Shown: one piece after another, positions 3,295 through 52,157 of the stretch
Layout: every line of letters begins with the position of its first letter
How positions within the stretch are numbered: position 1 is the first letter of the stretch
Source: Patescibacteria group bacterium
Lineage (GTDB): Bacteria; Patescibacteriota; JABMPQ01
NCBI GenBank assembly: GCA_041749335.1
Contig: JBGTBM010000007.1
Location: 85,408 to 149,407 of the forward strand
Direction of reading: 5' to 3'
DNA length: 64,000 nt
Program-made: the position numbers and the translations under genes
Notes under the pieces: model-generated
The model's database searches: none
What the model saw: the letters and a program-made list of their open reading frames with translations, nothing else
What the model was told of the DNA's origin: nothing

Positions 3295-3320
3295 AAAAGT
3301 AAAAATACTTTATATCATAA

Positions 3321-3347
3321 AAAACAGCAATCACGCTGTTTTTTTAT
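3321..3347 (+). terminator. Rho-independent terminator after the spacer tRNA cluster
   Basis: aaaacagc-aatcac-gctgtttt (8-bp stem) followed by a T-run. Confidence 0.55.
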
Positions 3348-4202: not shown

Positions 4203-4261
4203 CTCTTGGTGCTAGAAACTATGTTCTTTCCTAACTTTAGATCTTGAACTTTAGACTTTAG

Positions 4262-4298
4262 CCCTGCGTTAATTATTATATTAATGCAGGGTTTTTTG
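4262..4298 (+). terminator. Strong rho-independent terminator after the GC-rich gene
   Basis: ccctgcgttaat / attaatgcaggg gives a 12-bp stem (one G-U pair) with loop tattat, followed by T6. Confidence 0.75.
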
Positions 4299-4462
4299 TT
4301 ATATTCAAAACAATATATATATATATCAGGAAATTGTTAAATTGTTTTTATGATATCTTGTTCTAGTGTTTTTGTGATTTATCCTGATACAAAATTACCT
4401 CCATAATATTTCTACAATGATACATAAATTAGTGGTATAATAAATTAAGAAATCCCAAATAT

Positions 4463-8359: not shown

Positions 8360-8480
8360 TATGAAATTAGGCTTGACATATATTTTTACTGATTATAATA
8401 TTAGACAAGTATTAATATGAATAAATTTGACGCCAACTTAAAGAAAGCGACCTGATTATCCTATAGTGGGAGACTTTATG

Positions 8481-8508
8481 GTCGCATAATATGCGGCTTT
8501 TTTGTTCA
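8481..8508 (+). terminator. Weak hairpin + T-run downstream of the giant gene
   Basis: cgcata-a-tatgcg followed by gcttttttg. The stem is short, so confidence is low. Confidence 0.3.
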
Positions 8509-8591
8509 GATTAATGTGTGAACGTTGACAATTTATCAAGAATTTATACACAGGTAAAAAAATTTAGCAATTATTAATTGCTAGTCAATTA

Positions 8592-11484
<2,893 letters not shown>

Positions 11485-11752
11485 ACTAAAGCTTTTAAAA
11501 TCGCTTATATCGATGGCGGTTTTAAAGGTTTTAAAAATTGACTAGCGATTTATAGTTGTTATTAATATAATGATGAAGAATCAGCGAAGACGCGGTGTAA
11601 ATGATTAATTGAAAAAATGAATTTTAGGAAATTATTTTCTTCAGTAAAATTAATATTGGTTTTATTAATTATTGGAATATTCGTTTCAATTGCATTTTAT
11701 GTGACTTCGCTAAATTCTTTGGCGCACAATATATTTTAACTTGGCTGCAGCA

Positions 11753-11866
<114 letters not shown>

Positions 11867-11884
11867 TATTGCAGCTAAATAAAA

Positions 11885-11908
11885 TCACCCCACGAAGGGT
11901 GTTTTTTA
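11885..11908 (+). terminator. rRNA operon terminator
   Basis: caccc-cacgaa-gggtg followed by T7. Confidence 0.7.
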
Positions 11909-11932
11909 TTTATGAAACTGTTTATAACTTTT

Positions 11933-11961
11933 TTGATATTAGATCTTAAATTTGGTATATT
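11933..11961 (+). promoter_or_regulatory. Sigma70-like promoter for galU
   Basis: TTGATA, a 17-bp spacer, then TATATT, about 40 nt upstream of ATG 12000. Confidence 0.5.
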
Positions 11962-11999
11962 AAATAAGTAATTTAGCAATATAAATAATTTGTTAATCT

Positions 12000-12875
12000 A
12001 TGTCTAAAATAAGAAAAGTCGTGATTCCGGTAGCAGGATATGGAACCAGATTTTTACCGGCCACCAAAGCGCAGCCAAAAGAATTAATGCCGGTAGTTGA
12101 TAAGCCGATTGTGCAATATGTAGTGGAGGAGGCAGTAGCTTCGGGCATTACCGATGTTATTTTAATAACCGGTGCGAGTAAACATGCGGTGGAAAATCAT
12201 TTTGACTATAATTACGAGCTTCAGGCCATGCTTAAAAAACAAGGCAAAGAAGAAAAGAGAGCTGAAATTAAAGAAATTGCGGACATGGCTAATTTTATTT
12301 ATGTTCGTCAAAAAGGACCTTATGGCAATGGTACTCCGATTTTATGTGCCAAAGAAGTAGTTGGTGATGAACCCTTTGCGGTATTGTGGGGCGATGAATT
12401 TTTTTATTCTACCGGAAAGCCCAGATTAAAGCAGCTGATTGAAGTTTACGATAAATATACAGATCCGGTTTTAACCGCCAAGGAAACTGATGATGAAGGT
12501 ACGAGGAAATATGGAATATTGGACGCAGTGAAAGTTGAAGATAATGTTTTCCAAGTAAATAAAATAGTAGAGAAGCCGGGTCCGGAAAAAGCGCCGTCGC
12601 ACTTGGCATCATTGGGAGGTTTTGTTTTAACGCCGGATATTTTTGAGGAGCTGGAAAAAACAAAATTGGGAAAAGATAATGAACTTTGGCTGGTGGATGC
12701 CATATTTTCCTTGTCTAAAAAAAGGCCGATTTATGCCTGCGAAGTAGATGCCGACTACTATGACACCGGTTCAAAGATAGGCTGGCTTAAAGCTAATATT
12801 GATATGGGTCTGAAACATCCGGAAGTAAAAGACGACCTAATAAAACTCATAAAAGAAAAAAATAACTTAATATAA
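12000..12875 (+). CDS. galU: UTP--glucose-1-phosphate uridylyltransferase
   Basis: VIPVAGYGTRFLPATKAQPKELMPVVDKPIVQYVVEEA is the classic GalU N-terminal nucleotide-binding signature. Length 291 aa. Confidence 0.88.
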   Translation: MSKIRKVVIPVAGYGTRFLPATKAQPKELMPVVDKPIVQYVVEEAVASGITDVILITGASKHAVENHFDYNYELQAMLKKQGKEEKRAEIKEIADMANFIYVRQKGPYGNGTPILCAKEVVGDEPFAVLWGDEFFYSTGKPRLKQLIEVYDKYTDPVLTAKETDDEGTRKYGILDAVKVEDNVFQVNKIVEKPGPEKAPSHLASLGGFVLTPDIFEELEKTKLGKDNELWLVDAIFSLSKKRPIYACEVDADYYDTGSKIGWLKANIDMGLKHPEVKDDLIKLIKEKNNLI

Positions 12876-12877
12876 AA

Positions 12878-14191
12878 ATGAAAAATAAAAGCAAGTTTTT
12901 CCGCATCGGAGTCATACTGTTTGCCATTTTACTGTTTGCCGGTTTTGGTTGTAAGGATGATAGCCAAAAACAAGACGCGGAGCAATTAGAACCGGTAGAA
13001 ATTGTTATTTGGAGCTTATGGGATGAAAAAGAAGTATATGATCCTTTGTTGAATGAATATACAAAGCTTAATCCCAATATTCGCTTTGATTACAAAAAAT
13101 TTACTTTTGAAGAATATGAACAGGCTGTTGTTAATGCATTGGCCGCTGGCAAGGGCCCGGATATTTGGTTGATGCACCATACTTGGCTGCCAAAACATCT
13201 GGATAAATTAGCTTCTATGCCGGAAGGCAAGATGTCAGCTTTTGAATATTCCGATACCTTTGTCGATGTGGCATATAATGATTTTGTTATCGACAATCAA
13301 ATATATGGAATTCCGCTTTCAGTCGATACGCTGGCAATGTATTACAATAAAGATTTATTTAATTCAGCAGCCATTACTAATCCTCCGGCCAATTGGCAAG
13401 AATTCAAGGATGATGCCAGGGCTTTAACCAAAATTAATGAGTATGGCGATATTCAGCAGGCCGGGGCGGCCATCGGTACCGCTAGAAATATAAACCGAGC
13501 AGTAGATATTCTATACTTGCTGATGATCCAAAACGGTACGGAAATGACTGATGAAAACAATACTAATGTTTTATTTAATCAGTCTGCTACGGCCGCGGAC
13601 GGAGAAGAATATATTCCCGGATTGGACGCTTTGATTTTTTATACCGATTTTGCCAATCCTAAAAAAACCATCTATACCTGGAATCCCACCATGCACTATA
13701 ACACTGACGCTTTTATTGAAGAGAGCGTAGCAATAATGTTTAATTATTCTTATCAAAATGAGGTAATTAGAGGCAAGGCTCCTCGCATGAATTATGGCAT
13801 TGCGCCCGCTCCGCAAATTGAGGGATCGTCCAAGAGATATGATTTTGCCAATTATTGGGGATTTACGGTAGCTAATAATTCAAAAAATCAGGAAATCGCC
13901 TGGGATGTGCTTACCTTTTTAGGCAAGCAAGAAAATGTTAAAGCATATACCGAAACCACTAAAAGGCCGGCTTCTCGTAGAGATGTTTTGAACGAACAAT
14001 TGCAAGATCCTGACCTAAAGGTTTTTGCCGAGCAAGCATTATCGGCCCAGAGCTGGCATCAGGTTGATCCCGGGCAAATTGAAGCGATTATGGCCGACAT
14101 GATCGAAAAAGTCGCTTTAGGAGAGATTGAAGCCGAAGAAGCCTTAAATGACGCAGTCAATCGAGTGGATGTTTTAATGAGTAATCAATAA
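12878..14191 (+). CDS. Lipoprotein, extracellular solute-binding protein (ABC sugar-transporter SBP family 1-like); no cognate permease nearby
   Basis: Signal peptide with a Cys (LFAGFGCKDD). Size and composition (aromatic- and Asn-rich, ~437 aa) fit family 1. The call is heuristic. Confidence 0.55.
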   Translation: MKNKSKFFRIGVILFAILLFAGFGCKDDSQKQDAEQLEPVEIVIWSLWDEKEVYDPLLNEYTKLNPNIRFDYKKFTFEEYEQAVVNALAAGKGPDIWLMHHTWLPKHLDKLASMPEGKMSAFEYSDTFVDVAYNDFVIDNQIYGIPLSVDTLAMYYNKDLFNSAAITNPPANWQEFKDDARALTKINEYGDIQQAGAAIGTARNINRAVDILYLLMIQNGTEMTDENNTNVLFNQSATAADGEEYIPGLDALIFYTDFANPKKTIYTWNPTMHYNTDAFIEESVAIMFNYSYQNEVIRGKAPRMNYGIAPAPQIEGSSKRYDFANYWGFTVANNSKNQEIAWDVLTFLGKQENVKAYTETTKRPASRRDVLNEQLQDPDLKVFAEQALSAQSWHQVDPGQIEAIMADMIEKVALGEIEAEEALNDAVNRVDVLMSNQ

Positions 14192-14196
14192 TAGAT

Positions 14197-14940
14197 ATGA
14201 TTAAGTTGGAAAAAATAATAATGATATTGTTAATATTTGGATTATTTGCTGTATTTCAATTTCCAAATATTACATATGCAGAAGATGAAAAAATTTTAGA
14301 CAAAGGAGCATATTGTGGATTTTATCAACCTTTTTATGTTACGCCAACCATGAAATCTAAAACATTGGAAGGTTATAAATGTATAGAAGGTACAGTTTGT
14401 GGCTACGCAAGCGTCTGCGATGAGCTGCCCGCAAGTGCTACTGAGGCGGGATATAAGGGCAAACCAAGATTTGCATGTATACCTCCCGAGTGGGTTCAAC
14501 AAAGACAGGATCAATTAACTGCCTGTATTCAAGGAGGTCCAGAAAAGGCTGCCGAAGAAGCAAAAAAAACTAAAGCAGACAATGCTTGTCTTGCTCAAGC
14601 TACCTCGACAGAAAGGGGGATTTTTACTAGAGACCTATCACCAAAATGTTTTGCTTGCGGGGAATGTACTCAAAAAGATGTTTTCCAGGAATTTATTAAT
14701 ATTTTTACCTTTATTCTACAAATTTCCGGAAGTTTAGCTGTATTAGTCATAGTAATTGGGGGAATTATGTACATGACAGCGGCCGGCGATCAGCAAAAAA
14801 CACAAAAGGCCAAAGGAGCTTTGACAGCGGCTATTATAGGTCTTATAATAGTTCTAGTGGCATTCACCTTGATAACATTTGTGATGAATTTATTGGGGTA
14901 TTCAAATGCCGGTTCATGGTACAGTCCCAGTTTAAAATAA
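14197..14940 (+). CDS. Secreted Cys-rich protein with a C-terminal TrbC/VirB2-like (T4SS-pilin-like) two-helix domain; paralog 1 of 4
   Basis: N-terminal signal/TM segment. About 140 aa containing 10 Cys (YCGF, KCIEGTVCGYASVCDE, FACIPP, TACIQ, NACLAQ, PKCFACGEC). C-terminal LAVLVIVIGGIMYMTAAGDQQKTQKAKGALTAAIIGLIIVLVAFTLITFV is shared with the three downstream paralogs. Confidence 0.55.
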   Translation: MIKLEKIIMILLIFGLFAVFQFPNITYAEDEKILDKGAYCGFYQPFYVTPTMKSKTLEGYKCIEGTVCGYASVCDELPASATEAGYKGKPRFACIPPEWVQQRQDQLTACIQGGPEKAAEEAKKTKADNACLAQATSTERGIFTRDLSPKCFACGECTQKDVFQEFINIFTFILQISGSLAVLVIVIGGIMYMTAAGDQQKTQKAKGALTAAIIGLIIVLVAFTLITFVMNLLGYSNAGSWYSPSLK

Positions 14941-14944
14941 AAAT

Positions 14945-15358
14945 ATGTATAAAAATAAAATTATCGCTTTAGTAATTTTGATCATTTTTTCTAGTTTAAT
15001 TGTTTCCAATTTTGTATTGGCGCAAACTACTCCCAACGCTCCCAATATCCCATCAACATCAAATACTCCTAGCACCACCACGGGCACAAAAACATCAACT
15101 GCGACATTGACTAATCCTCTGTCGGTTAGTACGCCTGGGGCATTGATCGGAAATATTATTAAAACGTTAATGGGTGTCGTGGGGGTTGTGGCAGTTTTAA
15201 TGATTGTCTGGGGAGGTGTAATGTATATGACTTCGGCCGGCAGTGATGAAAAAATCGGCACAGCCAAGAAAATAATAACCGGAGCAATTATCGGCCTAGT
15301 GATATCAATATTGGCATATGTAATAATTGATTTTGTTATTAAAGCAATCGGAGGATAA
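14945..15358 (+). CDS. TrbC/VirB2-like pilin-like small protein (paralog 2); Thr/Ser/Pro-rich variable region
   Basis: Signal peptide; NAPNIPSTSNTPSTTTGTKTSTATLTNP; conserved C-terminal VGVVAVLMIVWGGVMYMTSAGSDEKIGTAKKIITGAIIGLVISILAYVIIDFV. Confidence 0.55.
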   Translation: MYKNKIIALVILIIFSSLIVSNFVLAQTTPNAPNIPSTSNTPSTTTGTKTSTATLTNPLSVSTPGALIGNIIKTLMGVVGVVAVLMIVWGGVMYMTSAGSDEKIGTAKKIITGAIIGLVISILAYVIIDFVIKAIGG

Positions 15359-15363
15359 ATATT

Positions 15364-15765
15364 ATGAAAACAAACTTGATAAATTTATTAGTGGTAATAC
15401 TAGCCTCATTATTTATTATATTTCCCATTGCACAGTTTTGCTATGCGGGCACTACTACCACTACCCCTTCAACTACCACCGGCTCTGACAAATACGGCCT
15501 TGGCGATGTAAAGAGTAGCGGACTGGTTACCAAAGATGCTACCGAAGTGGTCGGCAGTATTATTCAAACAATTATCGGGATCGTCGGTGTAATATTGGTA
15601 GTAGTACTTATTTATGGCGGAGTGCTCTATATGACTTCTGGAGGCAGTGAAGAGAAAACAAAAACTGCGAAAAAAGCGATAACCTATGGAATTGTCGGAA
15701 TAACTATTATTGCCCTGGCATTTGCAGTTACTCGCTTTGTGCTTGATGCGTTAATTAAACAATAG
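15364..15765 (+). CDS. TrbC/VirB2-like pilin-like small protein (paralog 3)
   Basis: Signal peptide; TTTTTPSTTTGS; conserved C-terminal VGVILVVVLIYGGVLYMTSGGSEEKTKTAKKAITYGIVGITIIALAFAVTRFV. Confidence 0.55.
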   Translation: MKTNLINLLVVILASLFIIFPIAQFCYAGTTTTTPSTTTGSDKYGLGDVKSSGLVTKDATEVVGSIIQTIIGIVGVILVVVLIYGGVLYMTSGGSEEKTKTAKKAITYGIVGITIIALAFAVTRFVLDALIKQ

Positions 15766-15796
15766 GATTAATAAAAATAAAATATATTGAAGGGAG

Positions 15797-16195
15797 GTGA
15801 TATCAGTGAAAAAATACATAAAGTTAATTTCAGCAAGCCTGGTAGCCGTTTTTGCGTTGGCGTTGGTTGTTCCTGCTGTAGCAGGTGCAGCCGCAACTCC
15901 TCCTACCAGTCCGACTGAATTACTAAATCAAACCGCAAATAAGTCAGGACAAACCCAAACTAGATCATTAACGGATATAATCGGTAACATTATTCAATGG
16001 ATTTTAGGCCTAGTTGGTGTGGTTTTGCTAATTATGTTTATTTATGGCGGTGTGCTTTATGCAACATCTGCCGGCAATGAAGATAAAGTAGAAACAGGCA
16101 AAAAGGTGATGCTATATGCTATTATCGGAGTGGTTATTATCGCTTTGGCGTTTGCCTTAACCAGATATGTAATCGATGCCTTATTTCAAGCGTAA
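15797..16195 (+). CDS. TrbC/VirB2-like pilin-like small protein (paralog 4)
   Basis: Signal peptide (AAATPPTSPTELLNQ); conserved C-terminal VGVVLLIMFIYGGVLYATSAGNEDKVETGKKVMLYAIIGVVIIALAFALTRYV. SD gaagggaggtg lies upstream. Confidence 0.55.
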   Translation: MISVKKYIKLISASLVAVFALALVVPAVAGAAATPPTSPTELLNQTANKSGQTQTRSLTDIIGNIIQWILGLVGVVLLIMFIYGGVLYATSAGNEDKVETGKKVMLYAIIGVVIIALAFALTRYVIDALFQA

Positions 16196-16210
16196 AAATT
16201 TAACAATTAT

Positions 16211-16245
16211 AAAACAGGCAATGTATACAGCCTGTTTTATTATTT
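16211..16245. terminator. Bidirectional terminator between the convergent pilin-like array and the GT-C gene
   Basis: aaaacaggc-(10 nt loop)-gcctgtttt with A/T runs on both sides. Confidence 0.55.
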
Positions 16246-17760
16246 TAGTTTATATATTAAAATGTTTTCATTTTCATAAATTGTTTCGAATCTGAAGTCT
16301 TTTTTAGCATAATCGACAAATTCAGAAAAATCTTTATTTATAAAAACATAGTCAGCCTTAAAGTCTTGTTTAATAATTTGATAAGAGTTCTCTAGCGATT
16401 GTTGAGAAAATAATTGATGCCACTTTTGATATAAATTATAATTATATTCTTTCATGAAATTAGGGTCCAGACCGGCAATGTAATAATTTTGATCATTGTA
16501 AAATAACAATTGCGGTGATTCGCTCCAGTCCAAATGATAAACAATTTCATTAGCCGGAATATTTTCTTTCATCCAAATACTGGCTTTCTTGATATTTGTT
16601 TTATCCTCTTTGTCATTATTGAGATTAAAATATACCGCTTGAAAATTATAAATGGCTGCGCTTGTAAGTAAAAAAATAATTAATAATTTTGAAGTATATT
16701 TATTTTTAAATAAAAATAATTTACCGATATATTTATTAATAGCAATATGATTATTTGTATATAAGTAAGCGGCCAGCAGGATAATTAGCGGAGCGCTATA
16801 TTCAATCATTTTTCTTACAACGATTGTCAGTATAAAAAAAATTACTGCGTTTAAAAATAAAAATAATGTTATTTTGCCAATTTTTCTATGTTTAATTTTG
16901 GTTAATAAAATTATAAAAATAGAAATGACAAAGAGCGCGATAATTATCAAAGAAGACGAGATTAAAAAACGTGGAGCAGACATATACCATTCAATTCCTA
17001 CCGGCATATTTGAAAAAGGGTCTTTTAAGGCAACTTGGTATAAATGAAAAAAAAGATGGTAAATATTTTTAGGAAAATATGGATTTAAAATTATGGCGAT
17101 AACAACTCCGGTAAGATAACAAAAAATCGGGTAAAATAAATCGGAGATTAATTTGGTATTTTTGGTTTTAAATAAATAGTAAACTTCAATCAGAGATTTA
17201 ATAGCAATGACAATGCCTAAAATAATAAATCCATCAAAGAGCCAAGCATAAAAAATAGTAAGCGGTATTAAATATATATAATTATTTTTAATCAGCAGAT
17301 AAATTCCTATTAGTAAAAGAATTAAAGCCAAGCTTTGCGCTCGCAGTAAGTTTAGCCGAAAAATAAAAAGCGAAGAGGAAAAAAGCAACAGCAGAGTCCA
17401 AAAGTGCGGAAACTTGATGTTAAGTTTTTTCAAAATAACAAAAAAAGCAATAAAAAAAGCGGCTGAAAAAATGATAGTAGCAATTTTAGCAGCTAAAAAT
17501 GGTTCTAATAATTTAAAAAAGGGCAGCAGTAATATATGAAAAAGAAGGTGATGCTCAACGAAATTATCATTTAATATGGTGTATTGCAGCCAGGGAAAAA
17601 TTTCAACCAACTTGCCGCTATCTAAAATAAGTTGAGCCATTTTGGCGTGATAATAGACATCGGTACATAAAAACTCATAAGCTTTAAATTGAATAATAGC
17701 TATAAATGAAATTACAGTTGTGATTAATATGATGTACTTTAAATAAAATTTTATACGCAT
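16240..17760 (-). CDS. Large polytopic membrane protein, putative GT-C-fold glycosyltransferase (PMT_2/ArnT/oligosaccharyltransferase-like)
   Basis: 506 aa with ~12 TM helices in the N-terminal 400 aa and a soluble C-terminal ~100 aa domain, an architecture typical of GT-C enzymes. No unambiguous catalytic motif was identified by eye. Confidence 0.35.
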   Translation of the reverse strand: MRIKFYLKYIILITTVISFIAIIQFKAYEFLCTDVYYHAKMAQLILDSGKLVEIFPWLQYTILNDNFVEHHLLFHILLLPFFKLLEPFLAAKIATIIFSAAFFIAFFVILKKLNIKFPHFWTLLLLFSSSLFIFRLNLLRAQSLALILLLIGIYLLIKNNYIYLIPLTIFYAWLFDGFIILGIVIAIKSLIEVYYLFKTKNTKLISDLFYPIFCYLTGVVIAIILNPYFPKNIYHLFFHLYQVALKDPFSNMPVGIEWYMSAPRFLISSSLIIIALFVISIFIILLTKIKHRKIGKITLFLFLNAVIFFILTIVVRKMIEYSAPLIILLAAYLYTNNHIAINKYIGKLFLFKNKYTSKLLIIFLLTSAAIYNFQAVYFNLNNDKEDKTNIKKASIWMKENIPANEIVYHLDWSESPQLLFYNDQNYYIAGLDPNFMKEYNYNLYQKWHQLFSQQSLENSYQIIKQDFKADYVFINKDFSEFVDYAKKDFRFETIYENENILIYKLK

Positions 17761-17800
17761 ATTTAAATCAATAATATCATTAAAGTGCTCATTGTTAAAT

Positions 17801-17836
17801 AAAAAAGCGGGATGTAGTTAATTGATAACATCCCGC
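17801..17836 (-). terminator. Rho-independent terminator of the minus-strand GC-rich operon
   Basis: On the minus strand: gcgggatgt-(12 nt)-acatcccgc followed by T6. Confidence 0.65.
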
Positions 17837-17869
17837 TATGAAAAAAATGAACGAAAGAACGTGGAAGGA

Positions 17870-18295
17870 CTAGAGAGGAGGATCAACGGCGGCGAAGTTG
17901 TAGAAGGGGTCCCTGCCTTTGTTCTGTTTGGGCTGACGAGAGGAGGGCTGGTAGGATTTCTGCTTTTTCTGCTGGGGGTAGGCGCGTCGCTGGTACTCAT
18001 GATACCGGCGGTTGCCTTCCATCTCTCTCGCGTGCATCCGCTGGATTGCCTCTTCACTCTCCTGTGTGAGCTTGTCTTGGCACCCTTTGATCGGTGTGAA
18101 GACGCAGGTGTAGAAAAGCACTCCAAAAACCAGTGGTACGAAAGTCCAGAAGAACAGCGGCTCCATCTTTTCAAAGTTGATAGTGAGACTGCGAGGAGCA
18201 GGCGGACTGTTTGAAACAGCAGCTTGCTTGCTTCGCGCCCGAAAAACCATAGCTGCCACGAAAATGATGCAGCCAACCAGGAATATGTATCCCAT
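17870..18295 (-). CDS. Membrane protein co-transcribed with the SPFH gene (possible NfeD/YqiJ-like partner)
   Basis: 141 aa. Two N-terminal TM helices, then a charged Gln/Arg/Lys-rich tail. GC-rich codon usage like the upstream SPFH gene. The overlapping + strand ORFs are judged spurious. Confidence 0.5.
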   Translation of the reverse strand: MGYIFLVGCIIFVAAMVFRARSKQAAVSNSPPAPRSLTINFEKMEPLFFWTFVPLVFGVLFYTCVFTPIKGCQDKLTQESEEAIQRMHAREMEGNRRYHEYQRRAYPQQKKQKSYQPSSRQPKQNKGRDPFYNFAAVDPPL

Positions 18296-18310
18296 GGGGC
18301 TTGCTCCTTT

Positions 18311-19234
18311 CTATTTTTTCTTACCCGGGCCCTTCATGGCGTCGGCCATAATGTGGGCGATCGGAATAGACGCAGCGAGGCCGGAGGCGAGATCATCGGA
18401 AACGATGTAAACGCCGTCGCCCTTGGCCATTTCTTCACGACCTTCAATGCCGCGAATGGCGGCGCCTTCCGCCGGAGTCCAGTGCTTTTTGCCAAGGATG
18501 GAGCTATAGACTTCATCGACACGTTCTTTCTCCGCCTGGGCATCCATACGCTTGGCATCGGCTTTGGCGGCCGCGACTTTGCGGACCTTGATCGCCTCGG
18601 CGTCCGCTTCGAGTGAAGCAGATTCCGGCTTGCTGATCGCGGCTTCCAGTTCTTGTGGAAGCTCCAGGTTCGTAAGTAGTATGCTTACGTTCCGAATTTG
18701 CGATTCAACAAGAATGTTGTGGCGATCATTTTTTAATAGATTATCCAGACGATCTTTTATATCAGTATTGAATTCTTTACGATCATGGTAAAGTCTCTCC
18801 CAGTCAAACTCTTGGCAAACATCCTCTACCAAATCCACGACCGGCTCCATAAAAAGACTGTGGAGATATTCGGATTCAAGTGAATTAATAATTTTGACTG
18901 TCTTAAGCAGCAAGGGAAGTTCCATAGGGCGCATGCGCGTGGGGTACCGGAAGCGTAAGGACAGATGAACAGTAACGTTGACCGCCGAGTGGCCCTTGTC
19001 CTTCTTTGTCAATATGCGAGTATTGAACTCTAATTCCTGCTTGGATGTTGGGAAAACGATCAAATCGCAGAGGGGAAAGGGGATGAAAATCAGACCCGAT
19101 TCTACCGCTTTTTCCGGCTTGCCGAAGGTGGTTACCACCCCGGCCTCTGCCGCCTTAACGACGCGCACAGACTTATACAGCCAAAAACCGATCAGAACCG
19201 CAAGTCCCAGAATAAAAGCCGTTGCTTCGGACAT
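18311..19234 (-). CDS. SPFH/band-7 (stomatin/prohibitin/HflKC-like) domain membrane protein
   Basis: N-terminal TM helix followed by VVKAAEAGVVTTFGKPEKAV..., the canonical start of the SPFH domain. A long coiled-coil Ala/Glu/Lys-rich C-terminal region (EADAEAIKVRKVAAAKADAKRMDAQAEKERV). Confidence 0.75.
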   Translation of the reverse strand: MSEATAFILGLAVLIGFWLYKSVRVVKAAEAGVVTTFGKPEKAVESGLIFIPFPLCDLIVFPTSKQELEFNTRILTKKDKGHSAVNVTVHLSLRFRYPTRMRPMELPLLLKTVKIINSLESEYLHSLFMEPVVDLVEDVCQEFDWERLYHDRKEFNTDIKDRLDNLLKNDRHNILVESQIRNVSILLTNLELPQELEAAISKPESASLEADAEAIKVRKVAAAKADAKRMDAQAEKERVDEVYSSILGKKHWTPAEGAAIRGIEGREEMAKGDGVYIVSDDLASGLAASIPIAHIMADAMKGPGKKK

Positions 19235-19482
19235 CTCACACCTCTTTTCTTGTTTTGCGTGGTTAAATTGTCAAAAAGCTTACATTTTCTGAATATTGAA
19301 TGATAACATAAATAAGAAAAAATGTCAATATTTTATGGAATAAATTAAGCAATGCTGGTAAAGCGCATAAATAAGGCAAATTTAGCCTTAATTATTATAG
19401 AAAATAGTCTATGCATAAAAAAGTAAATTTTGACTTTTTAGCTTAAATAAACTACGATTATAGCAAGATAATATTAAATCAT

Positions 19483-19869
19483 ATGAAAAATCAAAAAATA
19501 AAAATTCTGATCGTAGATGATGAAGCGGATATTTTGGCGATTTATCAAGAAAAATTTTCTCTGGAAGGCTACCGAGTGGAAGCTACGGACAAAGGCAAAG
19601 AGGTTCTTACGCTAGCAAAAAAATTTAAGCCTAAACTAATTTTACTTGATATTATGATGTTGGATACCGATGGCTATAAAGTAATCAAACAGCTAAAGAC
19701 TGATAAAATCACCAAAAAAATACCGGTGATTATGCTGTCTAATCTGGGGCACGGCGAAGCGATAGAAAAGGGCATTATTAACGGCGCCGATGATTATATT
19801 GTCAAAGTAAACTATACCCCCAGAGAAATAGTGGAAAAAGTTAATATTTTTCTAAAAGATCATAAATAG
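19483..19869 (+). CDS. Stand-alone response-regulator receiver domain (CheY-like), no output domain
   Basis: KILIVDDEADIL...LILLDIMMLDTDGYKVIKQLK...KIPVIMLSNLGHGEA. The phospho-acceptor Asp and the conserved Thr/Lys region are present. Confidence 0.85.
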   Translation: MKNQKIKILIVDDEADILAIYQEKFSLEGYRVEATDKGKEVLTLAKKFKPKLILLDIMMLDTDGYKVIKQLKTDKITKKIPVIMLSNLGHGEAIEKGIINGADDYIVKVNYTPREIVEKVNIFLKDHK

Positions 19870-19902
19870 CGGGCGAGTTAAAACATCTAATTCGGAGCAA
19901 AT

Positions 19903-21033
19903 ATGAAAATTTTTTATATCGCCACTACCGTCCATCTCGGTAAAAATTTAGACGAAGGCTTGGGCAGCACCACCCATACTTATTTTATTGCCAAGGAGCT
20001 TACTAAGTTGGGGCATGAAGTGCATGTAATTTCCAAAAGGTATTCCGATGATGCTAAATTTGAAATAATTAATGGCATTCAAGTACATCGTTTAAAAAGA
20101 GGAGTGGTGGCATCCGGAAAATCATTGGAAAAAAGCCCTTTTAAAAAATATTTTAAGCCGTTTAAGGCTTTTTTGAATATCGTTTTAGCTTATCAAATCT
20201 ATAAATTAGTGGATCAATACGGCTGCGATATAATTTTGGAACGGAACCATTCCTTGGGAGTCGGCGCACTAACTTCTTATCTGACCGGGCGCCCCTTGGT
20301 ATTGGAGGTGATTGATAGTATTTTAAGCAAATATTCGATCAAGCGGGCAAAACATATCATCGCCTATACCGACCGATTTTTTAGAAAAACCGATCAGTCC
20401 AAAGTTAAGTTGGTTAAGGTGGGTTTTGATCCTTCAACTTTTTATCCCGAATTTATGAAAACAAAGTATGATATTTGTTATGCGGGATCTTTCAAGCCTT
20501 GGGACGGCGTAGAAGATTTAATCGTGGCGATAAATTTATTAGTGAACAGATATCATTTAGATAAAGTCAAAGCGGTGATGGTCGGATCGGGAGAAGTTTT
20601 TGATCAGGCTATGAAACTTATCAAAAATTATAAACTGGAAAATAATATTATTATGGCGGGGCGGGTGGAAATTGCAAAAGTTCGAAAATATATCAATAGC
20701 TCGAAATTATGCGTGGCGCCTTATAATATTAAAAAATCCGATCGCGGGGAATTTGATAAATATGGATTCTATTACGCTCCGCTTAAAGTAGTTGAATATA
20801 TGGCTTGCGGAATGCCGATAGTGGCAACTAAGTATGTGATGATAAAAAATATATTGCCTCAAAACGGAGCAAAATATTTTGCCGAGGGCGATGTAGACGA
20901 TTTAGCCATTAATATTAAAGATGTGCTAAAATCCGATCAAATTTTAGCCATGGGAGAAAGTAATTTAAAGGAGTCCAAGAAATATACATGGCAAAAAGTG
21001 GCAGCGGATTTCGATCGAGTCTTTAATAGTTGA
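19903..21033 (+). CDS. Glycosyltransferase family 4 (GT-B)
   Basis: N-terminal GT4 domain (IATTVHLGKNLDEGLGSTTHTYFIAKELTKLGHEVHVI) and a GT1/4 C-terminal domain. Confidence 0.7.
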   Translation: MKIFYIATTVHLGKNLDEGLGSTTHTYFIAKELTKLGHEVHVISKRYSDDAKFEIINGIQVHRLKRGVVASGKSLEKSPFKKYFKPFKAFLNIVLAYQIYKLVDQYGCDIILERNHSLGVGALTSYLTGRPLVLEVIDSILSKYSIKRAKHIIAYTDRFFRKTDQSKVKLVKVGFDPSTFYPEFMKTKYDICYAGSFKPWDGVEDLIVAINLLVNRYHLDKVKAVMVGSGEVFDQAMKLIKNYKLENNIIMAGRVEIAKVRKYINSSKLCVAPYNIKKSDRGEFDKYGFYYAPLKVVEYMACGMPIVATKYVMIKNILPQNGAKYFAEGDVDDLAINIKDVLKSDQILAMGESNLKESKKYTWQKVAADFDRVFNS

Positions 21034-22192
21034 TTTGTCTAAATAAAACTTTTTCTAACTCTTTGGCAAGGTTGGGATAAAAATAATTTTGCGCCTTAAT
21101 ATGTCCGCTTGCTCCGAAATTATCTCGGAGATTTTTATTTTTGAGCAGTTTTTCCAATGCATTTTCCAGGGCAATTTGATCCCAAGGTTCAATCAATAAT
21201 CCATTTACGCCATTATCAATCACAAAAGGCACTCCGCCGGCATTTGTGCCAACGCTGGGTTTGCGCTGCGCCATTGCTTGTAAAAATACCTGGCCAAAAG
21301 CTTCATAACTGGATGGCAGAACTAAAATATCGCAGGCGGCCAGCGCGTCATTTTTATCTTGGCCGTAAAGTGGTTCCAGGATAAAAACATTTTTAATATT
21401 ATCTTTTATAATTATCTCCTTAAGCTGAGTAGTAAATTCCAATTTGTCATAATCTTTATCATCGGGGCCAATATAGACAAGTTTGGCATCCGGAATTTCT
21501 CTTTGGATATTTTTAAAAGCATCAAGCAGCATAAAAATTCCTTTTTGTTTGCGAATTCGCCCTAAAAATAAAATAATTTGGCTTCTGATGCCGAACCTCC
21601 GATAAAAGTCAGTTGGGCTGCCGGGTGTTAATTCATCTTTGGTTAGTCCACATGGAGTTTCATGGACTTTATTTAGATCAATGTCCTGTTTTTTCAACCA
21701 GGGGATTACAGCTTGAGTGCGGATAAATATATTTGTGCATTTATTAAAGATCCGGCGTGCAAAAAGGCGGTCAAACAGATCGAGCGGTATTTGCTTGTAA
21801 AAGGCTCGAGGCTTTTTTTGCGATTGGATGTCATAGAGCAACACGGAAAAAGGAATATTGTTTTTCCGGCAATACCTTAGTGCTTGCCAGGTTTGCGTCT
21901 GAGCATAATCCAAACTCATTACTGCGTCCAATTTATATTTACACATTTTTTTACTAATGCCCGGCCAATATTTTGCTCGATAAAAAAAACCATAGCTAGG
22001 TAGGCGATGAATTCTGACTCCTTCTATAACATCTTCAGGCTTATCGGCTTTCTTCGTAGCTTGGGTGAAAACATGGACTTCATGCCCCAAATTAGAAAGC
22101 TCTCTGGTGATATGCAGGGAATACCACTCAATGCCGCCGGCCATGTCGGGATAATAATTAGGGCAAATGTATCCGATACGCATATATTTCAT
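21023..22192 (-). CDS. Glycosyltransferase family 4
   Basis: ICPNYYPDMAGGIEWYSLHITRELSNLGHEVHVFT; EAFGQVFLQAMAQRKPSVGTNAGGVPFVIDNGVNGLLIEP (the E-X7-E-type motif region). Confidence 0.8.
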   Translation of the reverse strand: MKYMRIGYICPNYYPDMAGGIEWYSLHITRELSNLGHEVHVFTQATKKADKPEDVIEGVRIHRLPSYGFFYRAKYWPGISKKMCKYKLDAVMSLDYAQTQTWQALRYCRKNNIPFSVLLYDIQSQKKPRAFYKQIPLDLFDRLFARRIFNKCTNIFIRTQAVIPWLKKQDIDLNKVHETPCGLTKDELTPGSPTDFYRRFGIRSQIILFLGRIRKQKGIFMLLDAFKNIQREIPDAKLVYIGPDDKDYDKLEFTTQLKEIIIKDNIKNVFILEPLYGQDKNDALAACDILVLPSSYEAFGQVFLQAMAQRKPSVGTNAGGVPFVIDNGVNGLLIEPWDQIALENALEKLLKNKNLRDNFGASGHIKAQNYFYPNLAKELEKVLFRQINY

Positions 22193-22234
22193 TAAAACAA
22201 AAATAACTTAAGGTCGTTGTTTTGTTTCCATGTT

Positions 22235-23242
22235 TTAAAGTTCATTTGTTTCGCCGCAAACTTTGCATAGAGGCAGTTGACGTCTTTTCATCAGCTTGCG
22301 GGTTGATCTATATCTCTCACTATTCCAGATATTGTTAAAATTTTGTTCGAAAATATTACCCATCTTATATTTACCCTTAATATCATAACAACAAATGCAA
22401 ACAGTGCCGTCTGCCAAAATAAAACTGCGCTGGACATTGCTACAGGCAAAATCTCTTTTTAAGTTTTTTTCATTATCATATCGGCTTTTGCCGGAATCGG
22501 GCAAATATTCCGCTGCCAACTTATCGCTTTGTTCCCGGCTTAATATCCAGGAAGGTATTCCTAAAGATTTGACCGCGTAATCAACTTTTAAATCTTGCGC
22601 AATTTCTTTAAATTTATCTTTTTGCTGTTGATTTATTTTAGAAAAAATAAATTGCAATTCAATTTGCGGTTTTAGCTTTTTTTGAATTGTCTTTTCATTG
22701 TTGATGAATTTTATGGCGTTAATTACTTTATAAAAATCTCCGCCTTTGCGCATTTTTTGATAGGTTTCATTATCGGTGCCATCCAACGATACGATTAATT
22801 TATCTAGGCCGCTTGCGACAATCTTTTCGGCCGCGCCTTCATCGATTAAATTGGCATTACTGCTGGTAGTGGTATGAAGGTTATTCTGGTTAGCGTAGCT
22901 TACCATTTCTGTGAAATGAGGATTTAAGAAAGGCTCGCCGGCCAAAAAAAGCCAGATATGATGCGTGTGATTTTTTATTTTATTAATGGTTTGTTTAAAT
23001 TCATTTAAGGTCATCGCACGCCTGGGGCGTTCAATCAGGCAGGGCGGCGATGAGCAGAAATCACAATTTAAGTTGCAAACATTAATTGGTTCAATGCTGA
23101 TATTCCTGGGATAATTAAGAAATATTTGCTTGGGAAATATTTTAAATAAATGATAAATTTTGCCATAATCTTTGTTTTTATAATCCAGCTTTATTTCGTT
23201 TAGGTATCTTTTGGCGACGCGTTTAAATTTTTTTAAAGTCAT
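22235..23242 (-). CDS. Radical SAM protein with C-terminal SPASM/twitch Cys cluster
   Basis: CNLNCDFC (CX3CX2C) near the N-terminus. C-terminal CSNV...CICCYD...CKVCGE cysteine cluster. Confidence 0.75.
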   Translation of the reverse strand: MTLKKFKRVAKRYLNEIKLDYKNKDYGKIYHLFKIFPKQIFLNYPRNISIEPINVCNLNCDFCSSPPCLIERPRRAMTLNEFKQTINKIKNHTHHIWLFLAGEPFLNPHFTEMVSYANQNNLHTTTSSNANLIDEGAAEKIVASGLDKLIVSLDGTDNETYQKMRKGGDFYKVINAIKFINNEKTIQKKLKPQIELQFIFSKINQQQKDKFKEIAQDLKVDYAVKSLGIPSWILSREQSDKLAAEYLPDSGKSRYDNEKNLKRDFACSNVQRSFILADGTVCICCYDIKGKYKMGNIFEQNFNNIWNSERYRSTRKLMKRRQLPLCKVCGETNEL

Positions 23243-24168
23243 AGTTTTAGATAAGCGGTTAAGGCAACAATTGAAAATATAATTTCCAATAAAGTTAAAT
23301 ATAAAAAGGCATTCTGAAATTTATCCGTTTGTTCCGGGGAATCGTTTCCAATATTGAGTGAGCGTAGTCTTTTTTGTTCTCGGTCAAAGCTTTTTTTATA
23401 TAAAAAGTAATAAACTAAATAAGGGATCAGCAGGATCAAAAAAGGAATAATGGTATTTTGCAATATGGCGGCGCAGGCCACGATCGCTCCCAGGGAAAAT
23501 CTACCCACCTTGCCCAGTGAGAGTTTAGTATTGGTGAGATTATACATCTGTAAAAAAATGATGATACCACCGATCGTACTTAAAATCAGCTGCGACGTAT
23601 AGTTTTCTTCAAATACCGCCATGATAAATAAAGCTATCGTAATGATTGAGCCTAAAGCTAGATTTATTTTATTAAAGCTTTTAACGCCGTTAAAAAGCTT
23701 GGATGAAACAATGATGACAACGGGTACCGCGATAAAAAGGTAAATATTTGATTTATTTAAAGTTCCGTCAATAAAGGGATTATTTTGGTTAATAACGGCG
23801 GTTAATATGGGCATTATAGCGCAAATGAAAAAAATATTTCTTATTAAGTGAGTGGGGAATCGCAAAATATCATCAACAAAGCCGATAAAAGCGATAACCG
23901 CGATGCTTAAGAAGCTGGTGAAAAGCAAATAAGTATTTATATTTATATCGTCAGTGAAATTTTGAATGGTAAGAATAATGGAAATAACGATAAAAAAAAG
24001 CAATACGCTTAAAAGTCCTTCTAGGCTTTGTACGCGCGGTTTTTTGAATTTATTATTATCTTCGTTTCTAATCTTTTTCTTTTCTATCCAATTTTTTATA
24101 TAAGGAAATAAAGTAAAAGATAGTGTACTGGATAATAAGAAAGCGATTGTAACTAAAATCCAATTCAT
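23239..24168 (-). CDS. MraY/WecA-family paralog, degenerate (lacks PGxGG and NxxNxxDGxDGL motifs); possibly non-catalytic
   Basis: Polytopic membrane protein that shares GFVDDILRFP with the downstream paralog. It overlaps that paralog by 4 nt. The other catalytic motifs are absent. Confidence 0.45.
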   Translation of the reverse strand: MNWILVTIAFLLSSTLSFTLFPYIKNWIEKKKIRNEDNNKFKKPRVQSLEGLLSVLLFFIVISIILTIQNFTDDININTYLLFTSFLSIAVIAFIGFVDDILRFPTHLIRNIFFICAIMPILTAVINQNNPFIDGTLNKSNIYLFIAVPVVIIVSSKLFNGVKSFNKINLALGSIITIALFIMAVFEENYTSQLILSTIGGIIIFLQMYNLTNTKLSLGKVGRFSLGAIVACAAILQNTIIPFLILLIPYLVYYFLYKKSFDREQKRLRSLNIGNDSPEQTDKFQNAFLYLTLLEIIFSIVALTAYLKL

Positions 24169-25184
24169 CTATATAAATTAAATGTATGAAATATAAGGGC
24201 GATTACTGCGCATGAACCTTCAATGATCATTAATCTATGAACTAATTTTTTTTCGGTAATATTTTTTGATTTTTGCATTATCAAGTGGGTCAGTCCGTAA
24301 GCTTTTTTATATTCGCTTTTAATATTTCCCTGGCGGTCAATGACGCCTCTTTCTCTCGGCCTGGTTTTAATGGTTTTACGATCCCAGGTAATGCGCTGCT
24401 GCAATATTAAGTGTAAAAGATAAGGAATCATCAAAATTAACAGCGGATATTTAAGATTTCCTAAAATCGCTCCAACGGCAATGGCGCTGCCGGCGAAAAG
24501 AGTGCCGATATTGCCGCTAAAAATTTTGGCGGGAAACTTATTGTAAAAATAAAAGATAAGTAGTGCGCCGACCAAGGCGGCCAGAATAACCATGGCGGTT
24601 GTTTGATTAGATAAATAAGCGCAAATAAAAAGCGTAATTGATATTATTAAGCCGTTGCCGGGCATCAATCCGTCAAAATCCGCCATAATATTAATTGCAT
24701 TAGAAACAAAAACAATAATCAAGGGGACGATAATTAAAGGATAGATATAATGTAGATTGATATTTCCTAATAAGGGTACATTGAAAATAGTGCTTTGCCC
24801 GTACGCAATGGTCATCATTGGTATAGAGGCCAAGAGAGCAAAAATGGGCTTTATCGGTCTGATCGGAAACATTAAGATGTCATCTGTAATTCCCACAAAA
24901 GCCATAATGATGATTGATAAAATACCGGGAAGCAGTAGCACCAAATTAATACCATCAAAATCAAAAAGCATTTTTAAAGCGATGATGGCGGAAAGCGAAA
25001 AAAAGAAACTCAAAAGCAGGGCAATGCCGCCCAATCCCGGAATACGGCGCTGATCCAGCTTATTCATATCTGTCACGACAAATTTCTTGTATTTATGCCA
25101 TTTGATTACATAGGGAACCAGCCATAATGTTGATATGGTTGAAATTATGAAAGCGGTGATTGTTAAAAATAATTCTGATTTCAT
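24165..25184 (-). CDS. Polyprenyl-phosphate N-acetylhexosamine-1-phosphate transferase (MraY/WecA/GT4 family)
   Basis: RRIPGLGGIALL (KxxxPxxGG), GITDDIL, NAINIMADFDGL (NxxNxxDGxDGL) and FSGNIGTLFAGSA are all present. Confidence 0.75.
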   Translation of the reverse strand: MKSELFLTITAFIISTISTLWLVPYVIKWHKYKKFVVTDMNKLDQRRIPGLGGIALLLSFFFSLSAIIALKMLFDFDGINLVLLLPGILSIIIMAFVGITDDILMFPIRPIKPIFALLASIPMMTIAYGQSTIFNVPLLGNINLHYIYPLIIVPLIIVFVSNAINIMADFDGLMPGNGLIISITLFICAYLSNQTTAMVILAALVGALLIFYFYNKFPAKIFSGNIGTLFAGSAIAVGAILGNLKYPLLILMIPYLLHLILQQRITWDRKTIKTRPRERGVIDRQGNIKSEYKKAYGLTHLIMQKSKNITEKKLVHRLMIIEGSCAVIALIFHTFNLYR

Positions 25185-25209
25185 AATGGAAAGTATTTGT
25201 ATTTATCGT

Positions 25210-25335
25210 CCCCTCCTCAGATGAGGAGGGGAATTAAAGGGGAGGTGATGATTTTTAACAAACAGCACCCCCTCCTCCCGACTTAACGTCGGGATACTCC
25301 TGCCTGCGGTAGGCAGGCCCCCTCGACTGAGGGGG
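25210..25335. repeat. Cluster of 4-5 consecutive GC-rich hairpins in an AT-rich intergenic region
   Basis: cccctcctca-ga-tgaggagggg (25210-25231); tcccgac-ttaac-gtcggga (25276-25294); cctgcc-tgcggta-ggcagg (25299-25317); ccccctc-gact-gaggggg (25318-25335). The third resembles the 3209-3228 palindrome. Confidence 0.7.
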
Positions 25336-25362
25336 AGAAGTAAAAAATACTAATTCTTAAAG

Positions 25363-26205
25363 CTATATTTTACTTGATTCAATCTTTTCCCAATAGGTGC
25401 GATTATGCTTAAAATCCCACCAGGCCTTAGTCCAAGCCATAATGTCCAAAATAATATATAAAATCGTATAAGGATTTTTGAATATATACTTAATTTGGCT
25501 TAAGTTTCGCCTTTCGGAAATTTTCATGCCTTCTCGAGTAAGTTGCCACCAGCCGATGCGGTTGCGCGCTTTTTGTTTAATAAAATCAGATATGCTTTGT
25601 ACTGCCAGAACATAAGCAACGGCTTGGGGCTGATAGATTACTCTATGCCCCTGCTTTTTAATAAGCCATCCAACCAGAGCATCATCCAGTAAAAACTTGG
25701 TATCTATTTGCGGAGCGATGCTCTTTTTTACTCCCACCAGATATCCATTTAAAGCCCAAAATTTACCTGCATTATTTTCGGCAATTTTTTGCTCATTGAG
25801 GGCGATCCAGCCGGCATTTTGAATTTTATCAAAAAGGGTTTTTAGGCGATAACTTGCTACTTTTCCGCATGTAGCCGCCACCTTTTCATCCCTTAGGGTA
25901 TTCTCAATAATTTTAATTGCATCAGCGGCGATAATAACATCAGCGTCAATCATAATAATAATCTCATTTAGCGCTTGGCGCATAATTTTGTTAATGGCTG
26001 CAACCTTACCGGCTCTTTCTGTTTCTTCGATAATTTTTATCCGGGGATCATTGATTGATTTGACTTGGAAAACGGTGTCATCGGTGCAAGCGGAAGCGAT
26101 TACCAGTAGTTCATCGCCTTCTTCTAATTGTGGTAAAATTGTCTGAATAGTTTTTTTAATGCTCTTACCTTCATTATAAGCGGGAATTCCGACAGTTTTT
26201 AGCAT
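25363..26205 (-). CDS. Glycosyltransferase family 2
   Basis: VGIPAYNEGKSIKKTIQTILPQ...; DADVII (DxD). GT-A fold. Confidence 0.7.
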   Translation of the reverse strand: MLKTVGIPAYNEGKSIKKTIQTILPQLEEGDELLVIASACTDDTVFQVKSINDPRIKIIEETERAGKVAAINKIMRQALNEIIIMIDADVIIAADAIKIIENTLRDEKVAATCGKVASYRLKTLFDKIQNAGWIALNEQKIAENNAGKFWALNGYLVGVKKSIAPQIDTKFLLDDALVGWLIKKQGHRVIYQPQAVAYVLAVQSISDFIKQKARNRIGWWQLTREGMKISERRNLSQIKYIFKNPYTILYIILDIMAWTKAWWDFKHNRTYWEKIESSKI

Positions 26206-52156: not shown

Positions 52157-52157
52157 A

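Follow-up and report, generated by a model that had tools for sequence, protein, structure and literature searches.

The DNA considered here is a 64,000-nucleotide stretch of contig JBGTBM010000007.1 from a Patescibacteria group bacterium (hereafter the window; positions are window coordinates), and its subject is a two-gene operon on the minus strand that encodes an SPFH (band-7, stomatin-like) protein and a small membrane partner. The operon is GC-rich, contains an AT-rich core inside the SPFH gene and is convergent with an array of VirB2-like type IV secretion system (T4SS) pilin genes. We consider it probable that this operon is a long-resident unit of this Patescibacteria (Parcubacteria-group) lineage, which has been patched by recombination and serves the pilins as a scaffold. 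A preliminary description of the sequence had proposed a recent foreign acquisition; this did not hold, as all related lineages that we found carry the same pair with conserved synteny.

The SPFH operon and its relatives

Windowed GC and codon-usage calculations confirmed that a GC-rich two-gene island is set between AT-rich flanks and that its composition is not uniform. The window as a whole has a GC content of 34.7%, and the background without rRNA genes, in 300-bp windows, is 0.332 ± 0.062. The operon (17,870–19,234) has a GC content of 0.514, with 0.531 in the partner open reading frame (ORF) and 0.505 in the SPFH ORF; the value of 55–60% GC given in the preliminary description holds for the peak but not for the mean, which is 51–53%. 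The step is abrupt at both ends of the island, within <100 bp. Along 150-bp windows, a GC of 0.23 at 17,700–17,850 gives way to 0.49–0.61 over 17,850–18,675; it falls to 0.36–0.37 over 18,675–18,900, recovers to 0.46–0.54 until ~19,270 and then drops to 0.23–0.31. The drop to AT-rich composition at ~18,680–18,930, which had also been pointed out, was reproduced by calculation (GC 0.382). Outside the rRNA genes, GC of at least 0.50 was found only in this island and at 3,450–4,300, besides two windows at 63,651–64,000 (0.50–0.52).

The codon usage of the two genes is equally atypical. GC content at third codon positions (GC3) was 0.56 in the SPFH gene and 0.64 in the partner gene, compared with 0.17–0.42 in 49 other ORFs, and GC3 of two-fold codons was 0.46 and 0.69, respectively, compared with 0.23 ± 0.05 elsewhere. 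When scored with the host codon table, the log-likelihood of synonymous choices was 6–11 standard deviations low for the island genes. Both NNC and NNG codons were enriched, CGN was preferred over AGA, and CTN over TTA. Since GC3 is shifted at two-fold as well as four-fold codons, and the synonymous-choice likelihood with it, amino-acid composition is ruled out as the sole cause of the GC excess.

We regard the GC-rich tract as one transcription unit because a promoter-like site, Shine–Dalgarno (SD) sequences and a terminator-like hairpin bracket it (Table 1). The promoter-like site, which is a consensus match only, sits in AT-rich DNA just beyond the GC-rich tract. The two minus-strand ORFs had been placed at 18,311–19,234 and 17,870–18,295, and these coordinates are exact. 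The operon was also correctly described as ending in its own terminator: a 10-bp stem followed by a T-run was read directly from the sequence, the automated scan having missed the 12-nt loop. This hairpin is 92–94% identical in L004, one of the related loci described next.

Loci for comparison were found by exact-protein look-ups and locus fetches, and came from ENA, JGI and Logan assemblies. L004 and L005/L006 are close relatives, L001 (a 551-kb ENA contig) and L002 are related at the genus or family level, and L007/L008, L009/L010, L011, L012–L014, L033 and L034 are deep relatives. The SPFH gene, the partner gene and a convergent T4SS_pilin gene adjoin one another in the window and L003 (an independent Logan contig), L001, L004, L007, L009, L011, L012, L033 and L034, that is, in all ~10 lineages sampled, and the synteny holds down to an SPFH identity of 29–34%. 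The top homologues that could be looked up were all in the same pilin context. The upstream neighbours vary by lineage (a response regulator, HSP20 or NusA), which leaves the SPFH gene, its partner and the pilin as the constant unit.

The divergence of the operon from its relatives is in line with that of its flanks. Between the window and L001, identity is 64% and 44% for the two island proteins and 45–86% for flank proteins, and synonymous sites are saturated in island and flanks alike (proportion of synonymous differences, pS, 0.71–0.77), with close to random identity at four-fold sites. L007 and L009 are 34–39% identical to the window in the SPFH protein and 49–59% in the flank proteins. 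The tree topology of the SPFH protein agrees with that of the flank proteins. Over these distances the pair shows strong GC enrichment in the window clade (L001, L002, L004), L007 and L009. Its GC is 0.47–0.51 in L001 (flank 0.37), 0.50–0.53 in L007 (flank 0.25–0.38) and 0.55–0.56 in L009 (flank 0.40), its GC3 is 0.57–0.59 in L007 (flank 0.22–0.26) and 0.58–0.61 in L009 (flank ~0.43), and the two-fold-codon GC of the pair is about twice that of the flanks in L001, L007 and L009. A single ancient transfer followed by neutral amelioration, which had been worth considering since four-fold sites between the window and L001 are not fully random, was rejected because GC richness recurs across saturated synonymous divergence: L007 and L009 keep a GC3 of 0.57–0.61.

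These orthologous GC-rich loci largely refute the import of a GC-rich two-gene island in the recent past, perhaps from the same donor as the island at 3,440–4,300 and with a core derived from recombination with a resident gene, and we now regard such an event as improbable. It would account for the strongly atypical composition and codon usage, for the sharp boundaries at promoter and terminator, and for the present loss of GC from the island (below), as an ameliorating import would show. The nearest GTDB species representatives (L015–L017, Parcubacteria/Patescibacteria metagenome-assembled genomes found via the pilin) are also without the SPFH pair, and retain the NTP-transferase, SBP, the pilin array and the ~500-aa gene (42% identity). 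Relative synonymous codon usage (RSCU) is correlated between the two islands (r = 0.55; ~0 with the host), which is expected from any general GC shift and is compatible with, but no evidence for, a shared donor. However, the pair is syntenic in closer and deep relatives with a divergence equal to or above that of the flanks, and of the marks of a genomic island only the atypical composition was seen; there were no mobility signatures, the pair is present in close relatives, and its top homologues, where they could be looked up, are not foreign. Neither an integrase nor a transposase was found, and promoter and terminator enclose only the two ORFs. There is no tRNA at the island that could serve as a target (tRNAs occur only at 1.3–3.1 kb), and the island and its ends are not repeated, directly or otherwise, in the window. 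Searches by tblastn and blastn gave no match for the island in phages, plasmids or IMG/VR, and no donor-like homologue was found among 1.84 billion cluster representatives, phages, viral contigs and plasmids; amino-acid composition across the SPFH family revealed no strongly GC-rich members. The window holds no second SPFH gene that could have supplied a native core, and the tract that diverges from L004 extends beyond the AT-rich core.

The GC change over <100 bp at both ends of the island, in a metagenome-derived sequence, could also have come from the joining of a GC-rich fragment of another organism into an AT-rich contig during assembly or binning. The chance of this is negligible. L003 is identical to the window over 11,783–26,133 (14,351 nt), both junctions included, and its junctions, gene order and GC step recurred in L001, L002, L004, L005/L006, L007/L008 and L009/L010, which come from ENA, JGI and Logan and from other samples. 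In addition, the promoter, SD sequences and terminator form a coherent set.

A patchwork SPFH gene

To locate differences in history within the operon, the DNA of the window was aligned with that of L004, whose contig ends at ~19,000, inside the SPFH gene, and pS and the proportion of nonsynonymous differences (pN) were calculated by the Nei–Gojobori method. L004 is close to the window (pilin 98% and 506-aa protein 88% identical; flank synonymous divergence, dS, 0.40–0.44 and pS 0.31–0.33). DNA identity was 88–92% in the flanks and 68–83% in the partner gene. Within the SPFH gene it was 83–95% at 18,310–18,640 and 60–70% from ~18,650 to ~19,000. On the 3′ side of this step (aa ~190–307) the divergence was flank-like (pS 0.36, pN 0.06), whereas aa ~90–190 had a saturated pS of 0.78 and a pN of 0.26, which is the level of the whole gene in comparison with the far more distant L001. 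At conserved residues, identical four-fold sites numbered 7/23 in the central part and 39/58 in the 3′ part. The position at which these values change points to a recombination breakpoint at the 3′ edge of the AT-rich core.

Comparisons with other relatives gave further incongruent segments. At aa 90–140 the window and L004 are 0.64 identical, and each is nearer to L001/L002 (0.71–0.78; 0.74 between the window and L001). The C-terminal tail (aa 251–307) of the window, L004 and L005 differs in kind from that of L001, L002 and L007: it is 0.35 identical to the tail of L001, compared with 0.62 between L001 and L007. In the last 46 codons of the SPFH gene, pS between the window and L005 was 0.38, compared with 0.64–0.71 in the partner and 506-aa genes, and at the DNA level 18,311–18,450 is 88–90% identical to L005 1–138, compared with 58–80% in adjacent genes. 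These sequence comparisons point to a C-terminal SPFH module that was recently shared across the lineages of the window and L005. L001 and L002 differ along the gene in a similar but milder way: dS in the SPFH gene was 0.8 in the 5′ part, equal to that of the neighbouring response-regulator gene, and 1.3–1.4 further on.

Because the divergences and identities of its segments disagree with the flank phylogeny, the SPFH gene reads as a patchwork, whose 5′/central part and 3′ module differ in history from each other and from the flanks. The preliminary description was therefore right in calling the gene a mosaic, as indicated by the identity step against L004, the pS of 0.78 versus 0.36 and the incongruent segments, but its arrangement of foreign 5′ and 3′ ends around a native core could not be maintained, since the divergent tract continues beyond the core and takes in GC-rich sequence of the 5′ part. 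No section of the SPFH domain is less conserved than the AT-rich core. Its codon usage is host-like (GC3 0.20–0.43 at codons ~100–170), and the GC3 dip is shared by the window and L004 and faint or missing in L001 and L002. The core is thus a hypervariable, recombination-delimited part of the SPFH gene with host-like codon usage in this clade.

The encoded proteins and their proposed client

The SPFH protein matched Pfam Band_7 (PF01145) over aa 25–219 (E = 1.2e-18, 68.2 bits, cutoff 23.6), and its family profile matched PDB profiles of stomatin, HflC, flotillin, QmcA and prohibitin chains (1e-12 to 1e-6). The AF2 (AlphaFold2) model (pLDDT, the predicted confidence score, 78.7) comprises a helix at 2–22, strands at 23–96, helices at 103–177, a strand at 181–191 and a helix at 194–247. 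This corresponds to an N-terminal transmembrane (TM) helix (aa 2–22), which is also backed by hydropathy, an SPFH domain (aa 23–191), a 54-residue helix (aa 194–247) and a C-terminal module. Foldseek matched the model to the cages of stomatin, HflK/C, prohibitin, erlin and QmcA (E ~1e-12, probability 1.0), although the protein is only ~18% identical to solved structures. By this homology, it is predicted to form a large membrane-anchored oligomeric cage. An exhaustive hidden Markov model (HMM) search of the 1.84 billion cluster representatives returned 152 at E ≤ 1e-3 and 5 at E ≤ 1e-30, and scans of GTDB, JGI and IMG/VR with the SPFH alignment returned nothing; the protein belongs to a very small, deeply divergent SPFH clade. 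It is not HflK or HflC (TIGR01933 25 bits versus a cutoff of 159; PRK10930 and PRK11029 far under their cutoffs), and the operon lacks the HflK–HflC pairing, having a single SPFH gene and a second gene that is not SPFH. A defence system was rejected, as there was a single sub-threshold PADLOC match (E = 0.003, 15 bits), and the match to phrog_200 in PHROG is to the generic SPFH family.

The partner has one TM helix at aa 2–24 and a second that runs into a long charged helix (aa 45–105), followed by a basic Q/K/R-rich tail; its AF2 model is of low confidence (pLDDT 60). It is thus a multi-TM protein, with two hydrophobic helices, that is co-transcribed with the SPFH gene. The suggestion that it might be NfeD-like was followed up by HMM, and no NfeD (PF01957) match was obtained at E ≤ 0.1 in the window or at E ≤ 0.05 in five orthologues, which rules out NfeD. 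There was no significant match in Pfam, NCBIfam, PHROG or PADLOC, no OB-fold was predicted, and a scan with the partner returned only the already known JGI contig. Partner orthologues are present in all related loci. Because the partner start overlaps the SPFH stop in L009, L011, L012 and L033, translational coupling of the two genes is suggested in several lineages. In the clade of L009, L011 and L033, the partners are ~260–275 aa long and the basic tail is replaced by a C-terminal match to PA-IL-like (LecA-type lectin fold), which is significant only in L011 (E = 4e-9); the match in L009 (E = 0.004) is below the curated cutoff, and that in L033 was flagged as weak.

The arrangement resembles the SPFH–NfeD operons (E. 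coli QmcA–YbbJ and YqiK–YqiJ, B. subtilis FloA/FloT, Pyrococcus PH1511–PH1510), which likewise encode an N-anchored SPFH protein with a coiled-coil helix and a small, co-transcribed multi-TM partner, and the predicted fold of the window SPFH protein matches QmcA of the QmcA–YbbJ complex (8z5g). The window partner holds the place of NfeD. Unlike NfeD, it has neither an NfeD domain nor an OB-fold, but a basic tail or, elsewhere, a PA-IL-like beta-sandwich, and unlike those operons the fixed neighbour of the SPFH gene is a VirB2-like pilin array. Such arrays are a conserved feature of Patescibacteria. In 383 assemblies, 441 of them, each with 2–11 pilin genes, have been described, and one array has been reported to be essential (PMC12102498); the four-gene PF18895 array of the window is of the same kind. 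The terms SPFH, band 7 and stomatin are absent from that paper, and a link between an SPFH–partner pair and Patescibacteria pilin arrays appears to be undescribed in the literature searched.

Since all lineages sampled have the pair next to one or more VirB2-like pilin genes, we propose that the pilin pool or a pilus/T4SS-like machinery is its client, which the neighbourhood makes the most likely candidate. The SPFH oligomer and the partner would form a membrane microdomain or cage, and this cage may sequester, stabilize or meter pilins. The principle would be shared with HflK/C–FtsH and flotillin microdomains, in which an SPFH cage encloses or organizes client membrane proteins. Unlike HflK/C–FtsH, the window operon has no adjoining gene for FtsH or another protease, and its client is proposed from the neighbourhood. 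FloA is reported to support type VII secretion assembly in S. aureus. Flotillin is described as stabilizing unfolded membrane proteins (PMC11222466). A hypervariable SPFH segment, swapped partner C-termini and inter-lineage recombination would be expected under diversifying pressure at the surface or host interface.

The GC excess, the surrounding loci and implications

For the persistence of the GC excess, our tentative choice is that alleles from a GC-richer Patescibacteria pool have repeatedly replaced the resident ones by homologous recombination, and that GC decays between replacements. This fits the recombination evidence and the current decay of GC. When substitutions in the window and L004 lineages were polarized with L005 as the outgroup, changes from strong to weak bases (S>W) outnumbered the reverse (W>S) by 40 to 22 in the island, compared with 21 to 18 in the flank, and the implied equilibrium GC is ~0.38 for the island and ~0.27 for the flank.

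We rank this recurrent import slightly ahead of maintenance in place in each lineage, which is a reasonable but rather doubtful possibility. Maintenance could come from GC-biased gene conversion (gBGC) at a hot spot of recombination or from selection on synonymous sites, the latter perhaps for mRNA stability or structure or because rare codons pace the translation of a membrane protein that forms cages; the AT-rich core may escape as too divergent for heteroduplex formation or as unconstrained. Maintenance in place would account for a GC3 that stays at ~0.56–0.64 in the window clade and in L007 and L009 although synonymous divergence is saturated, and the locus does recombine. The GC-rich tract is coextensive with the transcript, the 15-nt spacer between the genes and the 3′ untranslated region included, and the equilibrium GC implied for the island exceeds that of the flank. 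On the other hand, the S>W excess shows that the island is off equilibrium in the window and L004 lineages, and the operon occurs in L011, L033 and L012 with little or no GC excess. Predicted mRNA folding was more stable than that of synonymous shuffles in 8/8 island genes (z −0.9 to −3.7), but control genes also gave z of −0.6 to −1.9, so the signal is weak. Synonymous divergence of the 3′ module between the window and L004 equals that of the flanks, with no sign of synonymous constraint. To our knowledge, a GC3 excess of 0.3 is far greater than the gBGC effects reported in bacteria, which also weighs against maintenance in place. Ordinary translational selection was rejected, as NNC and NNG codons are both enriched and the pilins, UvrB and other window genes have two-fold GC3 ≤ 0.35.

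We think it unlikely that the pilus-associated SPFH operon is kept GC-rich by an active process that has decoupled its composition from the host over deep time; a candidate extreme variant is a codon usage tuned to something besides the bulk translation of the symbiont. The sharp GC and codon contrast and the current net GC loss recall atypical genomic islands undergoing amelioration (Lawrence and Ochman 1997, as cited in PMC12455944). Unlike such islands, the window operon is without mobility genes and is orthologous and strongly GC-rich across saturated lineages.

A hidden second function of the DNA, such as an antisense gene, a structured non-coding RNA or a variable region like those of diversity-generating retroelements (DGRs), is very improbable. 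Several orthologues contain alternative-frame or antisense open stretches of 130–190 codons, and the central segment is hypervariable. However, the antisense stretches are in the in-phase frame expected from avoidance of TTA, CTA and TCA, their positions differ between lineages, and the frame is broken in the AT-rich core of the window, so an overlapping antisense gene was rejected as explained by codon usage and not conserved. A structured RNA was rejected since Rfam matches did not rise above noise and the folding z-scores were only weakly below those of controls. Likewise, the 64-kb window contains neither a template repeat nor any other copy of island sequence, and no reverse transcriptase was found among the neighbouring genes, which speaks against a DGR target, and no uptake sequence or repeat in the island was found within the window.

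Several observations weigh against our account of a long-resident, patched, pilin-serving operon. Gain or loss of the SPFH cassette occurs, as it is absent from the nearest GTDB genomes, L015–L017. The GC excess is not universal: it is weak in L011 (0.40–0.44 versus 0.35), L033 and L034 and absent in L012, which has a 44% GC genome, and independent gains are not separable from losses. The evidence for the mosaic comes from one close relative, L004, whose contig ends within the gene, and the segments provide small counts (23 versus 58 four-fold sites, and 32 synonymous sites in the L005 segment). The GC-richer donor pool is hypothetical, and all sampled carrier genomes have 35–44% GC, which is below that of the operon. 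The partner gene is more divergent than the flanks yet GC-rich, and the core is more divergent and AT-rich, so that no simple model fits both. The function, finally, is proposed from homology and neighbourhood.

Table 1. Coordinates of the operon, its internal segments and other features (window coordinates except in the last three rows, which give positions in the related loci named)
Feature	Coordinates	Strand	Remarks
GC-rich single orphan gene	3609–4202	+	197 aa from ATG; GC 0.57, GC3 0.71; within 16S–23S spacer
Four VirB2-like T4SS_pilin genes	14197–16195	+	PF18895 (Pfam); array convergent with operon
506-aa multi-TM protein gene	16240–17760	−	No family match; between operon and pilin array in window clade and L007
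Intrinsic-terminator-like hairpin	17800–17837	−	Ends operon; stem AGCGGGATGT/ACATCCCGCT, 10 bp perfect, at 17,837–17,806; loop 12 nt; then T-run
Partner gene	17870–18295	−	141 aa; SD AAAGGAG; 15 nt past SPFH stop
SPFH/Band_7 gene	18311–19234	−	307 aa; SD AAGAGGTG upstream
SPFH 3′ module	18311–18649	−	Coiled coil and C-terminal tail; GC 0.58; common to window, L004 and L005
Inferred recombination breakpoint	18650–18690	−	~aa 185–195; at 3′ GC step/3′ edge of AT-rich core
AT-rich core of SPFH ORF	18680–18930	−	GC 0.38; codons ~100–185; helical part of SPFH domain
Tract deeply divergent from L004	18691–19000	−	At least to L004 contig end; takes in GC-rich DNA 5′ of AT-rich core
Promoter-like site upstream of SPFH gene	19300–19328	−	TTGACA, spacer 17 nt, TG-TATCAT; 11/12 match to sigma-70-like consensus
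Stand-alone response-regulator receiver gene	19483–19869	+	Divergent from operon; window clade and L007
Partner gene with PA-IL-like match	L011 8593–9372		
Partner gene with weak PA-IL-like match	L009 7639–8463		
Partner gene with weak PA-IL-like match	L033 964–1761		

The 506-aa multi-TM protein beside the pilin array is a candidate pilin-processing or glycosylation membrane protein. Clusters at 19,903–25,184 and 39,844–53,297 contain glycosyltransferases, radical-SAM/SPASM and B12-radical-SAM genes and two asparagine-synthase-like genes, which suggests that extensive loci for cell-surface glycan or peptide modification surround the pilin/SPFH region. L001 carries a 23S_rRNA_IVP-family gene in a glycosyltransferase cluster and an rRNA-proximal GIY-YIG gene (3576–3935 and 19334–19594), neither of which was seen at the corresponding positions of the window.

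The window opens with an rRNA operon (16S 1–973, 23S 8,594–11,486, 5S 11,754–11,866). Its 16S–23S spacer (974–8593, ~7.6 kb) contains tRNA-Ile, tRNA-Ala and tRNA-Val together with protein genes, which are unusual in such a spacer. Among these is the orphan gene of the second GC-rich island, whose synonymous-choice likelihood deviates from the host by ~11 standard deviations. The gene has its own promoter-like site of the TTGACA type near 3,390 and its own terminator hairpin at about 4,255–4,295; searches of Pfam, NCBIfam, PHROGs, PADLOC, phages and IMG/VR gave no match, and its exact product is not on record. The spacer also holds an ORF of 200 aa without a Pfam match (2,206–2,808) and a surface-protein-like ORF of 1,298 aa with SdrD_B and CarboxypepD_reg domains (4,463–8,359). 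Just downstream of tRNA-Val, at ~3195–3258 on the plus strand, lies a tRNA-like 3′ half that was called by neither ARAGORN nor Rfam; it has a GGTTCAATTCC T-loop, an acceptor-like end and CCACCA, and is preceded by the GC hairpin CTGCCTGCCGGCAGGCAGG.

GC islands are usually read as recent transfer, and composition-based island callers would mislabel this operon. It offers a compact system for asking what holds a locus off the genomic mutational equilibrium, and if the GC excess were actively maintained, it would provide an exceptionally clear natural example of composition being maintained at a single bacterial locus. The mosaic shows segment exchange between fairly distant Patescibacteria at a locus for surface or membrane machinery, which bears on the diversification of host interaction in reduced genomes. 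For the assembly of the pilins, the SPFH cage and its variable partner, lectin-like in some lineages, are testable accessory candidates. If the proposed association is true, the operon would link an undescribed SPFH cage with the VirB2-like pilin arrays on which episymbiotic bacteria depend.

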